Assembly (NCBI GenBank): GCA_001780035.1
Contig: MFEY01000007.1
Span: 6,212-70,211 of the forward strand
DNA from: Candidatus Doudnabacteria bacterium RIFCSPHIGHO2_12_FULL_48_16
GTDB taxonomy: Bacteria; Patescibacteriota; Doudnabacteria; UBA920; O2-02-FULL-48-8
DNA: 64,000 nucleotides
Direction of reading: 5' to 3'
The notes below the pieces were generated by a model. That model saw nothing but the letters and a program-made list of their open reading frames with translations, was not told the origin of the DNA and did not search any database. This document shows, one piece after another, positions 59,594 to 63,975 of the stretch. The translations under genes and the position numbers were made by a program. How positions within the stretch are numbered: position 1 is the stretch's first letter; the number at the start of each line of letters is the position of its first letter.

Positions 59594-59950
59594 CTATTCG
59601 CGCGAATTAGACCCAAAGAATTCTCTAGCCGCCTTTTCGTCTTTCTTCATTTGCTCCACTAACTCAGATTGCGAATCAAATTTTTTATTCTCGCGAATTT
59701 TTTTTAGAATTTCAACTTCTATCTCCTGGCCGTACAAATCGCCATTATAATCCAAAATATGAACTTCGCCATGTCTGACAGTTTCGCCGAAGGTTAGATT
59801 GGACCCAATGAAAACTAGTGACGGCCGATTATTCGCCAAACCAACATAAATACCATCCTTAACCTCTTGGGCCAAATCAAAATTCGCCGTGGGAAATCCC
59901 ATCGCTCTTCCTCGTCCCTGGTCTTTTTTTACTAATACTTTATACTTCAT
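59594..59950 (-). CDS. Riboflavin kinase (stand-alone RibF C-terminal domain)
   Basis: …GRGRAMGFPTANFDL… is the riboflavin kinase beta-barrel motif. 118 aa. Confidence 0.75.
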   Translation of the reverse strand: MKYKVLVKKDQGRGRAMGFPTANFDLAQEVKDGIYVGLANNRPSLVFIGSNLTFGETVRHGEVHILDYNGDLYGQEIEVEILKKIRENKKFDSQSELVEQMKKDEKAAREFFGSNSRE

Positions 59951-60380
59951 ACCTTATACTTCTTCGCAACTTCGAACTCTTATAAATCTGCGGCCAATGG
60001 GGTTTGAGCCGCACGACCTTGGTTTTCTTCAACCCATGCTTCTGCAACTCTGTCTCGAGGGTTATTATCTGTTTTCTGTTATCTGTTATCTGACTAATAT
60101 ACAATCCTTGATCATACCCCAGGGCAATCACATCCGGTCGTGCTTTCACAATATGCGGCCAAGGGTCAATTTTGCCCCCCAAAACGATTTTATCGACATA
60201 AGGGACGCTTCCCAGGTTTGCCAGGCGCTGTTTTTCATCGTGGACCGGCCGCTGACCTTTGATTTTGATGACATTTACATCGCGGGCCACGGACACGATC
60301 AGAAAATCACCCAAAGCTTTGGCCTGCTTGATAAAATCCACATGTCCGGGATGCAACAAATCAAAGACTCCAAATACCAT
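59940..60380 (-). CDS. FMN adenylyltransferase / cytidylyltransferase-like nucleotidyltransferase (stand-alone RibF N-terminal domain)
   Basis: MVFGVFDLLHPGHVDFIKQAKALGD… has the HxGH nucleotidyltransferase motif. It overlaps the riboflavin kinase gene by 11 nt. Confidence 0.65.
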   Translation of the reverse strand: MVFGVFDLLHPGHVDFIKQAKALGDFLIVSVARDVNVIKIKGQRPVHDEKQRLANLGSVPYVDKIVLGGKIDPWPHIVKARPDVIALGYDQGLYISQITDNRKQIITLETELQKHGLKKTKVVRLKPHWPQIYKSSKLRRSIRYEV

Positions 60381-60396
60381 GACTTTAATTTTTTTT

Positions 60397-60663
60397 CTAA
60401 CTGTAAATATCATGATCACCGATATCGATAAAACCAACCCGGCCTTTCCCTAGAAACTCAAAAAGCACTCGATATGAGTGCGTAATTGAAAAAGACCAAT
60501 ATTTTTTCTGTTTACCGCCAAGCTTATGGGTCTTCAGTCTAGGATCGAAGCAGTTATTTTTAAAAATTTTTTCCCGTTCTATAACAATTACTTTTTGATC
60601 TCGATCCAATTTTCTTAACGCTCTCAAAAAATGATTAGAATAACTAATCTCTTTGATTTGCAT
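60397..60663 (-). CDS. RelE/ParE-family type II toxin
   Basis: …KKYWSFSITHSYRVLFEFLGKGRVGFIDIGDHDIY is the RelE/ParE C-terminal signature. 88 aa. Confidence 0.7.
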   Translation of the reverse strand: MQIKEISYSNHFLRALRKLDRDQKVIVIEREKIFKNNCFDPRLKTHKLGGKQKKYWSFSITHSYRVLFEFLGKGRVGFIDIGDHDIYS

Positions 60664-60666
60664 AAT

Positions 60667-60894
60667 TTAGCCCATCAAATCCGCCAAAGAACCTTTAAGA
60701 ACCTTTAATTTGCCTTCCCGCTTCTCTTTTTTATAAATCTTAATTGCTTGTTCCATTTCCATCTCCTCCAAATAGCGGCGTAAGGCTGTCCTTAAAAATT
60801 CCGAACGGGTCATGTGTTGTTTTCTTGCAGCTTTCTCTGATTGAGCCACCATTTCCGGCGGCAATGACACCGTAACTAAAGACGAAGTTCTCAT
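60667..60894 (-). CDS. Ribbon-helix-helix (CopG/ParD-like) antitoxin
   Basis: …LVTVSLPPEMVAQSEKAARKQHMTRSEFLRTALRRYLEE… is an RHH fold, and the gene is immediately upstream of the toxin. Confidence 0.65.
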   Translation of the reverse strand: MRTSSLVTVSLPPEMVAQSEKAARKQHMTRSEFLRTALRRYLEEMEMEQAIKIYKKEKREGKLKVLKGSLADLMG

Positions 60895-60985: not shown

Positions 60986-62365
60986 TTACTTTTTACCTTT
61001 TGATTTTAACTTTCGAACAATCCCCATATTCGCATCGACTTCGACCAGCTCGCCGTCTTTTAATGATTTGGTCGCTATCTTGGTTCCAATTATACATGGA
61101 ATATTAAGCTCCCTGGAAACGATTGCCGCATGGCAAGAAAGACCTCCTTCATCAGTTACAATTCCTCCAGCCTTTTTCATAATTACTGTATAGTCCGGCG
61201 TAGTCATGTTAGTTACCAAAATATCACCAGGTTTTAGCTTATTAAATTCAGCCTGCCTAAGAATGATTTTGGCCTCACCTTGTACTAACCCACGGCAGGC
61301 TACCTGACCCTCAAGTCCATTTTTATTGATTTTGTCCGGCTTAGTAACGTGACTATATAATTTCTTTACAATTGGGCCGGTCCATAAAATTTCCCGATTA
61401 TTTAAATAACCATGCGCGTATCCCTGATGACGGTTTTTGACATCACGCTTGGCTACCAATATGTTGTTATTGCGCAAAGACTGAACGACTTCCTCATCAC
61501 GCATCTGAAAAAAATCCTCCCTTTTAATATTCAAATCAGCCGCCAGTTGCTGGGCCAAGGGTTCAAAACTAAACCAAATTTGCTGAGAAATTTCTTTCAT
61601 TCGGTTACGTAAATAAATGCCAGCCTGAAGGCCAACGAGTATATAATTATTTCCCACATGGGGATGGCCGGATAGTTTTTTCGAACTAATATTTTTTATT
61701 TCTTCTCGAACATCCTTTTCTGTATAGTTATCAATAATATTGTATGCTGTTTTTATCCAACCATATTTCTTAACATGGTTACGGATCATTTCCTTCTGTT
61801 TGCTTCCCGAATTAGATTTAATCGAGATCAAAGATAGGTGGAGGCGGTCAACGTCCAACACTTTATAAGATCTGGCACCCGCAAGGAGTGTCGGATTTTT
61901 CAATTGTAACTCCTTCTCACAATAGTTAGTTAAAGGAACGGCTACGATATAATACTTTTGTATGCGCAAAAGCAGAGTCTTATATTTTTTTAAAGTAGTC
62001 AATTTCTCGGTTACGGTGGCCTGTGACCAGTTTTTATGCTTTAAATATTTACAGAACGAATGAGCCTCTCCCGCTGCCTTGTCGATTTGTTGAACCAACT
62101 TCAGAGGCCATTTTTTATCCTGCTTGAATGCAGCGATAAATTTATCGTAGAAATTTTTTGTCGCTGCATTATCGTATAAGTTAGCATCGTTAACCCAAAA
62201 AATTGAATTATATTTAAGCACAACCGACCGCGAAATATTTAAGGGTTGCAACTCTGCCTGACTTACAATTGCGCGTGATTGCAAATACCCGGGTCTTTTA
62301 ACCCTTAAATCCCAATCCTGAGAAACAAATTCTTTTTCAAGTTGTTTAGTGGGTATGGTAATCAT
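60986..62365 (-). CDS. Protein with a C-terminal PEP-utilising-enzyme mobile (swivel phosphohistidine) domain and an uncharacterised N-terminal region
   Basis: The C-terminus …GDILVTNMTTPDYTVIMKKAGGIVTDEGGLSCHAAIVSRELNIPCIIG… matches PF00391-type swivel domains. The start is trimmed to MITIPTKQ, whose ATG overlaps the upstream stop (ATGA). Confidence 0.6.
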   Translation of the reverse strand: MITIPTKQLEKEFVSQDWDLRVKRPGYLQSRAIVSQAELQPLNISRSVVLKYNSIFWVNDANLYDNAATKNFYDKFIAAFKQDKKWPLKLVQQIDKAAGEAHSFCKYLKHKNWSQATVTEKLTTLKKYKTLLLRIQKYYIVAVPLTNYCEKELQLKNPTLLAGARSYKVLDVDRLHLSLISIKSNSGSKQKEMIRNHVKKYGWIKTAYNIIDNYTEKDVREEIKNISSKKLSGHPHVGNNYILVGLQAGIYLRNRMKEISQQIWFSFEPLAQQLAADLNIKREDFFQMRDEEVVQSLRNNNILVAKRDVKNRHQGYAHGYLNNREILWTGPIVKKLYSHVTKPDKINKNGLEGQVACRGLVQGEAKIILRQAEFNKLKPGDILVTNMTTPDYTVIMKKAGGIVTDEGGLSCHAAIVSRELNIPCIIGTKIATKSLKDGELVEVDANMGIVRKLKSKGKK

Positions 62366-63975
62366 AACTTCCTCACAATCCCCTTGTTCGCATCGACTTC
62401 GACCAGCTCGCCGTCTTTGAAATTCGTCATGGCGTTTTTTAACGCCACTACGCACGGAATGCCAAATTCCCGCGACACCACGGCCGCATGGCAAGTCAGG
62501 CCCCCGACCTCGGTGACGATCGCTGCCGCGCGCTTCATCGCCGGCAGATGATCCACACATGTCGCATAGGTAACCATAACATCTCCATTTCTAACCTTGT
62601 CATTCTGACCGGAAAAAGCCACGATCCGAATTTTGCCCCTGACTTTTCCCGGGCTGGCGCAGGTTCCCTTACTTTCATCCCCACCCTGGATGGGTTTAAC
62701 ATAACTTTCTATATGTTTAAATAAATTTTCCGCTTCGATAGGGTTAAGGTTAAGTCTTTTTTTCATACCCAAATCATAACCCCAGCCTCCATACTTTCCC
62801 TTTTTCGCCTGTATATTTTCTATGAACTGTTTACCCCGCAATGCATCCACTAGTTCTTTTTCGGTTAACCCACGCAGCTGTTTAGAAGAAAGATATAATC
62901 TCGCCTGGGATTCGTTGAATAAAGGCATGAGAAACTTGCCTGCATAACTTACAAAATATTCGGCTTCGTTTCTTACGTCTAAAGCCAAACCAAAATCTAT
63001 GAATATTTGCAGACTTTTTTTCCCAAGCCTGTATTTTTTTACAATCTTAGAAATATCGCGGTTGCGAATAATCCTATAGTACTTTAGTTCTTCCAGTTCT
63101 TTTATTAAATCTTTTAATTTACTTTTGGTTAAGTCTTTTAATCCCTGGGTATAATGTTCAGCTTGCCAACCATCTCCGTAAGTAAATATCGGCATCCAGC
63201 CAAATTGCTGGGCTAATATTTTAGACGCGGCTAAAAAAGAGGTTTTCTTATTTTTTATTTTTATCGCTTGAAACAAAACAGCTCTTTTCTCAGTCAGTGT
63301 GGTTGAAATTTGTTCGGGTTTGATTAAAGCAAACATGACTTCGTTATACTCTTTGCTTCCGAAATTTAAACCGGCTTCTTTTTGCAGAATGTTCTTCATC
63401 AATGGGGTCCAGTATTCTTCCCCCAGCCAGCCAAATTGATCAAAAACCACCACATGATGGACCCAACGTCTGATCTCCTCTATAGATTTAGCCAAACCTG
63501 CATTCGAAAGTTTATGAGGGTTTTTATAAATTCCTCGCACCGCGGCCTTGGCTTTTTCGTCTAAGGAATAAAAAGTTCTAAGCTTACGGCTTAAGGCCAG
63601 GTAATCGTTTTGGTTTATTTGGACAATTTGCTTGTGCAGTAAAGTGAAATATTTGGTGGGCACATAGGCGTGCATATATCCATCCTCGCCTGTATACATC
63701 GTCAGAATACCCTTGGGGATGCCAAAGGTTTGTTTGAAAAATTCATTGGTATTTTCGCCATACCAAGTGCCGGTGTCCAACGGCGGGGTATTCCACTTCC
63801 CCATTTTGGTCACCCTAGTTTTGAAATAATGATTCCGCATTGCGTTCATTATACGATAAACCGCAGCATTGACAAAATCGCCAAAAAGTGCTAATATATA
63901 TAGTTCGTAGCTGTTCTTTTTTAGATGCTGAATTCTGTGAGTTTTTCTGTGCCCTGGAATTTCCAGTTCAGACAC
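62362..63975 (-). CDS. Paralogous PEP-utilising swivel-domain protein with an uncharacterised N-terminal domain of about 430 aa
   Basis: The C-terminus …GDVMVTYATCVDHLPAMKRAAAIVTEVGGLTCHAAVVSREFGIPCVVA… is swivel-domain-like. The N-terminus has no ATP-grasp signature I can recognise. Confidence 0.6.
   Translation of the reverse strand: MSELEIPGHRKTHRIQHLKKNSYELYILALFGDFVNAAVYRIMNAMRNHYFKTRVTKMGKWNTPPLDTGTWYGENTNEFFKQTFGIPKGILTMYTGEDGYMHAYVPTKYFTLLHKQIVQINQNDYLALSRKLRTFYSLDEKAKAAVRGIYKNPHKLSNAGLAKSIEEIRRWVHHVVVFDQFGWLGEEYWTPLMKNILQKEAGLNFGSKEYNEVMFALIKPEQISTTLTEKRAVLFQAIKIKNKKTSFLAASKILAQQFGWMPIFTYGDGWQAEHYTQGLKDLTKSKLKDLIKELEELKYYRIIRNRDISKIVKKYRLGKKSLQIFIDFGLALDVRNEAEYFVSYAGKFLMPLFNESQARLYLSSKQLRGLTEKELVDALRGKQFIENIQAKKGKYGGWGYDLGMKKRLNLNPIEAENLFKHIESYVKPIQGGDESKGTCASPGKVRGKIRIVAFSGQNDKVRNGDVMVTYATCVDHLPAMKRAAAIVTEVGGLTCHAAVVSREFGIPCVVALKNAMTNFKDGELVEVDANKGIVRKL

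Follow-up and report, generated by a model that had tools for sequence, protein, structure and literature searches.

Genes A and B of a Candidatus Doudnabacteria locus as probable carrier subunits of a split dikinase resembling rifampin phosphotransferase

Two adjacent genes, here called A and B, in a 64,000-nucleotide stretch of the genome of Candidatus Doudnabacteria bacterium RIFCSPHIGHO2_12_FULL_48_16 (contig MFEY01000007.1, positions 6,212 to 70,211; hereafter the window) raise the question of what a protein does that joins a C-terminal His swivel domain to a large N-terminal domain (N-domain) of no evident family. The source genome belongs to the candidate phyla radiation (CPR), and the locus, on a contig of 282 kb, extends beyond the window. 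Our analysis suggests that A and B probably belong to a set of ten paralogous carriers that form part of a split, ATP-dependent dikinase resembling rifampin phosphotransferase (RPH) and are charged in trans by an ATP-grasp protein encoded at the same locus.

Genes A and B and the fold of their N-terminal domains

As the original prediction from the DNA letters had it, two open reading frames (ORFs) on the minus strand between 60986 and 63975 both end in a swivel domain, which in each case matches PF00391 and retains an intact His:

62362..63840, minus strand: gene A, putative 492-aa carrier subunit with an RPH rifampin-binding-like N-domain and a C-terminal His swivel
62593..63840, minus strand: gene A N-domain, substrate-binding-like, mostly helical, ~415 aa
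62380..62592, minus strand: gene A swivel (PF00391), catalytic His codon CAT at 62488-62490 within GGLTCHAAV
60986..62365, minus strand: gene B, putative 459-aa carrier subunit (start MITIPTKQ) with an N-domain and a C-terminal His swivel
61235..62365, minus strand: gene B N-domain, substrate-binding-like
61022..61234, minus strand: gene B swivel (PF00391), catalytic His codon CAT at 61130-61132 within GGLSCHAAI

The stop codon of gene A (K-L-TGA, 62362) overlaps the ATG of gene B in the expected ATGA, at 62362-62365 (aagttATGAtt). Of the predicted lengths, that of B (about 460 aa) is correct, while the 537 aa given for A are those of the maximal ORF, opened by a GTG at 63975. Orthologs of A are ~492-496 aa long and conserve an N-terminal HYxKxKxVKMGxW; because of this length, and because residues are conserved before the start of the public gene call (63804), the start of A lies at 63840 (MRNHYF, 492 aa) or at the alternative 63849, and sequence comparison makes 63840 the most likely.

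PF00391 was the sole family found in a Pfam search of A and B. The full profile is matched at the C-terminus of each, with 79.9 bits for A (E 1e-22) and 90.5 bits for B (E 5e-26) against a gathering score of 23.1, and the motif context T/SxxGGxxxH is present in both (TEVGGLTCH in A, TDEGGLSCH in B). The nearest sequence relative of these swivels is that of phosphoenolpyruvate (PEP) synthase 8a8e (~50% identity, E 1e-24 to 1e-25), with which they have the GGxT[SC]HAA motif in common. BLASTP similarity between A and B is restricted to the last 188 residues (38% identity).

Pfam and NCBIfam searches gave no match at all for the N-domain of A. The earlier statement that the N-terminal parts show no recognisable ATP-grasp or TIM-barrel signature is correct, and the N-domains do not align to ATP-grasp; that they are unrecognised domains, as was also stated, does not hold. 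AlphaFold2 models of the two proteins drew on 53 and 56 homologs and reached a predicted local distance difference test (pLDDT) score of 92.2 and a predicted template modelling (pTM) score of 0.90 for B, and 94.6 and 0.93 for A. In Foldseek searches of the PDB the six top matches for each model were entries of Listeria RPH (RPH-Lm), the best being 5fbt/5fbu for A (E 9e-14) and 5fbu/5fbt/5fbs/5hv1 for B (E 3e-15), both with a template modelling (TM) score of 0.57. RPH-Lm chains are aligned over the whole protein (E 1e-13 to 3e-15, TM 0.55-0.57), and the four wild-type entries have query-normalised TM scores of 0.50-0.57. All remaining PDB matches, to pyruvate phosphate dikinase (PPDK), enzyme I and pyruvate kinase, align the swivel alone (TM ~0.2). 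As judged from the predicted models and one search program, the N-domains are divergent RPH rifampin-binding domains, and neither ATP-grasp nor TIM barrel.

The two N-domains are homologous to one another despite 10% identity, since an hhalign profile-profile alignment of the A and B families spans 384 columns with a probability of 100%. NCBIfam models for PEP synthase, RPH, PigC/RedH and PRK08296 match only the swivel in A; in B the same models reach ~100 residues further upstream, the end of an RPH-type rifampin-binding domain. The RPH-type models align to B from residue ~257-281 on, into the last helices of that domain, and the B profile aligns to RPH-Lm residues 699-866. PDB sequence and profile searches, including one with a fused relative (P0028, below), never carried the RPH alignment upstream of residue 699. 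The A orthogroup has a mean column identity of 59%, with D291, R293, E295, E297 and Y298 invariant, and just 64 representative clusters (at 50% identity) match the N-domain of A among 1.84 billion proteins.

The locus of ten putative carriers and its relatives

Ten genes on one strand end in PF00391, most of them linked by 4-nt overlaps, and A and B close the series. The tandem pair originally described, correct in that the two are adjacent paralogs, is thus really the tail of a ten-gene array, and the ATP-grasp is encoded by a separate gene outside the window. Beyond the window, positions are given in L028 coordinates, which refer to the source contig; the order runs from the locus head:

PaaX_M-like protein, 184 aa, first gene at the locus head
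MazE/AbrB-like protein, 67 aa, before the ATP-grasp gene
L028 2309-3244, carrier strand: stand-alone PPDK_N ATP-grasp protein, 311 aa
L028 3241-3880: DUF5674 protein (114 aa), then an unassigned protein (97 aa)
Carrier S1, 473 aa, after the 97-aa protein
L028 5340-5624: stand-alone GIY-YIG protein, 94 aa, between S1 and S2 and translationally coupled
Carrier S2, 492 aa, after the GIY-YIG gene
Haloacid dehalogenase (HAD) phosphatase, 201 aa, after S2
Minus strand of L028: two genes after the HAD gene, 297 aa (sub-threshold His_Phos_1) and 206 aa (His_Phos_1, 28.5 bits)
L028 9569-10004: HicB/HicA pair, 72 aa and 74 aa (HicA 50.9 bits), just before P1
Carriers P1-P6, after HicB/HicA: 498, 353, 474, 477, 495 and 448 aa
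Minus strand of L028: 227-aa ORF of no assigned family, between P6 and A
Carriers A (492 aa), then B (459 aa), at the locus end

The ten carriers sum to 4,661 codons (~14 kb of coding sequence). Inspection of the swivel for a conserved His, proposed earlier as a check, found it in A, in B and throughout the array, GG[ILV][TS][SC]HA[AS] with its His being kept in 10 of 10 paralogs. The swivels are 41-65% identical to one another (mean 54%), the N-domains 10-24% (mean 17%). An Arg lying in a long helix ~30 residues before the segment aligned to RPH residue 699 is conserved in nine of the ten (segment R253-N-R-M-K257 in B, R293-N-E-A-E297 in A); carrier P2 (L028 11494-12555) has a Lys in its place. 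P2, of 353 aa, also belongs to a recurrent class of short carriers (~345-380 aa) without roughly the first 120-150 residues of the N-domain, seen in L011, L016, L017, L019, L020 and L030 as well. The idea that the carriers are recent duplicates homogenised by gene conversion was rejected: swivel-coding DNA is merely 61-76% identical between copies and, of five carrier types examined, A, B and the type labelled P-1 each have a widely distributed orthogroup of their own, while S1 and S2 have orthologs elsewhere.

The ATP-grasp gene lies ~17 kb upstream of A on the same strand. Its product matches 5hv6, the isolated ATP-grasp domain of RPH, from end to end (E 4e-65), and also archaeal PEP synthase 8a8e (E 5e-72) and the 387-aa chain 9goj (E 1e-45). 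It retains K20, R112 and T131 which, through an alignment of P0028 with RPH, correspond to RPH K22, R117 and T136, the ligands of the ATP phosphates (PMC4844700). Identity to the copies in L035, L030, L003 and L034 is 86, 82, 73 and 64%, against 42-66% for the orthologous carriers there, a degree of conservation that fits a hub obliged to fit many partners. Flanking FMN (flavin mononucleotide) adenylyltransferase and riboflavin kinase genes are likewise less conserved than the ATP-grasp, at 58 and 53% identity. A tblastn search with the C-terminal domain of PEP synthase turned up no PEP/pyruvate TIM barrel, either in the window or across the locus.

Among CPR bacteria and DPANN archaea, the orthologs of A, of B and of P-1 form three well-conserved groups that match over their full length, with identities of 39-81% for the B type, 47-71% for the A type and 53-76% for the P-1 type; full-length orthologs of A and B number in the hundreds and share invariant polar residues. 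A scan of species-representative genomes, which did not include the source genome (best match 63% identical), returned 24 CPR/DPANN loci; in 20 of them, 2-8 carrier genes form an array that repeats every ~1.2-1.6 kb. Ten of the 24 include a coding region for an ATP-grasp, mostly at the 3' end of the array; one of these ten, in L011, is a complete PEP synthase. Stand-alone copies are ~315-329 aa long, and more than one was found in none of the 24 loci. Three contexts fetched besides the scan (L030, L034, L035) each combine one ATP-grasp with between three and at least eight carriers, and the ATP-grasp directly adjoins carriers in L003, L010, L024, L030 and L035. In L030, which comes from a second Doudnabacteria genome, eight or more carriers come after the ATP-grasp, and two minus-strand His_Phos-like genes are also present. 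The order in L034 is CTP_transf_like, three carriers, HAD gene and ATP-grasp. L035 runs from the ATP-grasp through three carriers, the third of them A-type, to FMN adenylyltransferase-like, riboflavin kinase and EamA genes and, further on, rpsL, rpsG and fusA.

The carrier repertoire is broad: clustering at 150 bits divides the N-domains of 95 array proteins into 69 clusters, and the arrays of the two Doudnabacteria clearly share just S1 and P1. Fusions in the order ATP-grasp, N-domain and swivel, which is the order of RPH, are found for the B type (P0028), the P-1 type (P0320) and the A type (P0366 and P0363). Double-unit relatives, with swivel, N-domain and swivel or with two full carriers in one ORF, were also seen (P0077, P0079, P0083, P0091, L006 10859-13615 and L020 694-3078), one of them with a winged-helix-like segment at its N-terminus; either true fusions or read-through across tandem genes could account for them. 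The split carrier system is common in ultra-small bacteria and archaea. A literature search found no description of such arrays in CPR or DPANN, which does not prove that none exists, and likewise no description of the one-to-many gene ratio, the repertoire size or the CPR/DPANN concentration; one survey does no more than tally the rph-like hits of CPR genomes (PMC8651080).

Functional readings and the gene neighbourhood

Domain content, fold, the His in all ten paralogs, the phosphate ligands of the ATP-grasp, the gene neighbourhood and the gene fusions support the split dikinase, and HpeH, the carrier of the biochemically characterised two-component dikinase HpeHI, is reported to be related to RPH in the same way as A and B (PMC12167813). 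The original suggestion of a phosphotransferase or dikinase with uncharacterised substrates appears to be the best reading of sequences and models. In the proposed mechanism, the single 311-aa ATP-grasp protein would bind ATP; the C-terminal swivel of a carrier would dock on it, and the His would attack the beta-phosphate. With the gamma-phosphate lost as Pi, the phospho-His domain would swing back to its own RPH-like N-domain and phosphorylate a hydroxyl of the small molecule bound there, the net reaction being ATP + X-OH + H2O -> AMP + Pi + X-O-P. Charging in trans, a single ATP-grasp protein for all ten carriers, hydroxyl-bearing small molecules as substrates and any physiological role are inferences. 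With N-domain identities of 10-24%, a different substrate is to be expected for every carrier and a common ATP-binding partner for all, as a hub with spokes. Symbionts this small, whose reduced genomes nevertheless retain ~14 kb of such genes, are likely to need them; knowledge of the substrates could explain how CPR and DPANN cells capture or modify host metabolites, and would also provide kinases of new specificity that run from ATP to AMP.

Several observations weigh against this reading. The ATP-grasp gene, 17 kb from A and B, is probably in another transcription unit, and in some genomes a B-type gene stands by itself, the surrounding 7-10 kb containing no ATP-grasp. Among NCBIfam models, those for PRK08296 and RPH match the swivel region and a short lead-in only, far below their cut-offs, so that sequence-level membership in the characterised families fails. 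The Arg of the apex-like helix is at most a candidate equivalent of RPH Arg666, sequence alignments ending at 699; in RPH it is Arg666, Glu667 and Lys670 of the apex subdomain that face the phospho-His as catalytic residues (PMC4844700). Finally, the carriers may act independently of the ATP-grasp, because HpeH alone shuttles phosphate between substrates (PMC12167813).

A more far-reaching version of the split dikinase, which we put forward tentatively and consider less than probable, is a CPR/DPANN hub-and-spoke kinase in which a conserved ATP-grasp charges fast-diversifying carriers and supplies much of the small-molecule kinase capacity of the cell. Scavenged sugars, nucleosides, polyols and cofactor precursors, to give examples, would be trapped as phosphate esters, and the embedded phosphatases, nucleotidyltransferases and NUDIX enzymes would act on the carrier products.

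That the array is instead a set of RPH-like enzymes inactivating antibiotics or toxic metabolites of hosts or neighbours, each N-domain tuned to one compound, seems unlikely to us. RPH is the sole solved structure matching the N-domains, and their repertoire is extremely diverse, differing even between two Doudnabacteria as in a detoxification arsenal; one A-type context lies among small multidrug resistance (SMR), ATP-binding cassette (ABC) exporter, Ddl and VanX-like M15 genes, and the rph-like hits of the CPR survey (PMC8651080) point the same way. However, the A, B and P-1 orthogroups are 47-76% identical over their full length across distant CPR and DPANN, which fits housekeeping-type substrates better. 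The neighbouring HAD, histidine-phosphatase, inositol-monophosphatase (IMPase), NUDIX, nucleotidyltransferase and nucleoside-phosphorylase genes act on phosphorylated metabolites, and a phosphatase beside an inactivating kinase would reverse resistance.

Carriers acting without an ATP-grasp, as phosphate shuttles between phosphorylated and unphosphorylated metabolites or as phospho-relay or regulatory proteins, much as Bacillus pyruvate kinase has a swivel-like domain that does not serve as a dikinase domain, would account for the several B-type genes without one nearby and for the histidine-phosphatase-family genes embedded in the arrays; HpeH alone does move phosphate from 4-phosphoacetophenone to acetovanillone (PMC12167813). 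This is nonetheless quite improbable, as an ATP-grasp lies in or beside the arrays in 10 of the 24 scanned loci and in three further contexts, independent fusions link it to three carrier types, and it keeps its nucleotide-phosphate ligands.

Very improbable, too, is a ligase-like role in which phospho-His activates the substrate for bond formation, the array being a pathway or ligase set. The prodigiosin ligases PigC and RedH have the RPH architecture in common, and their NCBIfam models match the A and B swivels and the ATP-grasp, but these matches are confined to the shared domains (68-74 bits against cut-offs of 1300-1350). Furthermore, the locus has no polyketide synthase (PKS), nonribosomal peptide synthetase (NRPS) or tailoring genes, and array composition is too variable between genomes for a fixed pathway. 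The last alternative, that A and B are functionless, truncated or decaying remnants of PEP synthase or PPDK genes, is refuted: their swivels do most resemble those of PEP synthase (~50% identity to 8a8e), yet the N-domains align to neither its ATP-grasp nor its TIM barrel, the ORFs are intact and translationally coupled, hundreds of full-length orthologs have invariant polar residues and the models are confidently folded.

Around the arrays, an HAD phosphatase gene directly follows a carrier in five loci, and further recurrent neighbours are His_Phos_1, CTP_transf_like, nucleoside phosphorylase and TrmB-type regulator genes. As a weak hint, these recurrent neighbours, together with the IMPase and NUDIX genes beside solitary B-type genes, point to phosphorylated hydrophilic metabolites or cofactor salvage, and not to phenols. 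Solitary B-type genes were seen with three IMPase-family genes around them (L031 8262-12857), with a NUDIX gene 7 nt downstream (L033 8372-8839) and, in a Micrarchaeota genome, with an abutting glycerate-kinase-like DUF4147/MOFRL gene (L032 2481-3791). A CTP_transf_like nucleotidyltransferase gene abuts the carrier array in three genomes (window 59594-60437, L035 8531-9628, L034 5043-5468), accompanied by riboflavin kinase in the window and in L035. A GIY-YIG gene is also found near the L035 array. DUF5674 is paired with an unassigned 97-109-aa protein at two genomes' loci (L028 3241-3880, directly after the ATP-grasp, and L021 8698-9374). The 227-aa ORF has the look of a histidine phosphatase by eye, matched nothing in Pfam or NCBIfam and gave E 0.08 to the 206-aa His_Phos_1 protein; no call was made. 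A PADLOC search of A, B, the ATP-grasp and six neighbours gave no match and hence no connection with known defence systems.

Next to genes A and B stand three further features:

60667..60894, minus strand: putative ribbon-helix-helix (RHH; CopG/RelB-like) antitoxin, RHH_1 35.7 bits (cut-off 20.5)
60397..60663, minus strand: putative RelE/StbE/YafQ-like toxin, 88 aa, full-length matches, all below cut-offs
63869..63919 (L028 19017-19067), minus strand: 51-nt repeat just upstream of gene A

Of the predicted toxin-antitoxin pair downstream of B, the antitoxin-like protein scores above the RHH_1 cut-off; the toxin-like protein matches RelE_StbE, YafQ, HigB-like and ParE-like models at full length and below their cut-offs (TIGR02385, 22.3 bits against 27.9). 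The two genes are 3 nt apart. The pair lies beside the array, and we do not count it with the dikinase system; it is one of several scattered selfish modules, and nothing links it to the function. Genes of toxin-antitoxin type stud the locus: HicB/HicA precedes P1, whose start overlaps the hicA stop, the RHH/RelE-like pair follows B, and a MazE/AbrB-like gene comes ahead of the ATP-grasp.

A second copy of the 51-nt repeat, 92% identical, lies 9.5 kb away at L028 9499-9549, upstream of hicB-hicA-P1. The repeat carries the strongest promoter-like match of this region (TTGTCA-16-TATAAT, 63875 to 63848), from a consensus scan in which the number of such sites was not above shuffled expectation. 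Two GC-rich minus-strand genes inside the array, the 206-aa His_Phos_1 gene (GC 0.63) and the 227-aa ORF (GC 0.60), stand out from surroundings of 0.39-0.49. Both are bracketed by a 26-nt repeat 3' (L028 8710-8735 and 18328-18353; 96% identical) and the 51-nt repeat 5', an arrangement that looks like a duplicated divergent-promoter cassette.

The block had been described as AT-rich and consistent with an accessory region. Its GC content is indeed lower (0.42 for A, 0.39 for B and 0.34 for the RelE-like gene, against 0.474 for the whole window), but L035 is syntenic with the window through rpsL-rpsG-fusA, the array lying upstream of the FMN adenylyltransferase, riboflavin kinase and EamA genes in both, which places it at a conserved chromosomal site. 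The locus varies in content while keeping its place, and is not simply an acquired island.

Comparison with known dikinases

PEP synthase and PPDK consist of ATP-grasp, central swivel and C-terminal PEP/pyruvate TIM barrel, whereas A and B match the swivel alone and carry it at the C-terminus; the second substrate domain of these enzymes also has a fold unlike that of the A and B N-domains. As an annotation rule, a 350-500-aa "PEP-utilizing enzyme" with a C-terminal swivel would be better described as a dikinase carrier than as a PEP synthase fragment.

The C-terminal placing of the swivel, remarked on in the original description, is the usual arrangement in RPH, HpeH and PpsA (PMC4844700, PMC12167813). 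RPH (RPH-Lm, PDB 5FBS/5FBT/5FBU/5HV1) has the same domain order as A and B and is the only solved match beyond the swivel. It performs the same chemistry in one chain (PMC4844700), a single polypeptide of 860 aa, while A and B are without the ATP-grasp; its full architecture is reproduced by the fused A-, B- and P-1-type relatives elsewhere, not at the locus of this genome. Sequence identity in the structural alignments is 14-18%, the N-domain is ~345-415 aa here against 428 aa in RPH, and the RPH equivalog model NF041857 scores 61.4 bits for A and 74.9 bits for B against a cut-off of 999.

To our knowledge, the recognition of two-component RPH-like dikinases as a subfamily is recent and has been limited to phenol-type substrates of aromatic catabolism. 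We assume that the PRK08296 models cover this 570-630-aa HpeH/CreH/PpsA group, whose three members are ~45% identical to one another; models PRK08296.1-1 to -5 align in the swivel region alone, to residues 375-479 in A and 330-454 in B, with 48-93 bits against cut-offs of 578-730. The closest parallel to the present locus is nevertheless provided by HpeHI of Rhodococcus, CreHI of Corynebacterium and the phenylphosphate synthase PpsAB of Thauera, in which A and B correspond to HpeH, CreH and PpsA. HpeI is a lone ATP-grasp and HpeH has been modelled as an RPH-like substrate-binding domain with a swivel; the HpeH His is essential and the HpeH-HpeI complex is transient (PMC12167813). As in those systems, an ATP-grasp-only protein accompanies proteins with an RPH-like domain and a His swivel, so the A/B locus shows the swivel His, the RPH-like N-domain and the separate ATP-grasp of the class, and the same ping-pong phospho-His chemistry, yielding AMP, Pi and a phosphorylated substrate, would be expected (PMC12167813).

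There are also differences. The carriers here are 350-500 aa long against ~600-640 aa in HpeH, CreH and PpsA, and the residue two before the His is a PEP-synthase-like Thr/Ser, in contrast to the Met of RPH and the phenol kinases (PMC12167813). The systems here belong to CPR bacteria and DPANN archaea and, unlike HpeHI, CreHI and PpsAB, have no context of aromatic catabolism, and the ratio of ATP-grasp to carrier genes is 1:3-10 in place of 1:1. The locus points to a much larger and more diverse two-component dikinase branch in CPR and DPANN, in which a single ATP-binding subunit seems to serve as many as ten different carriers.

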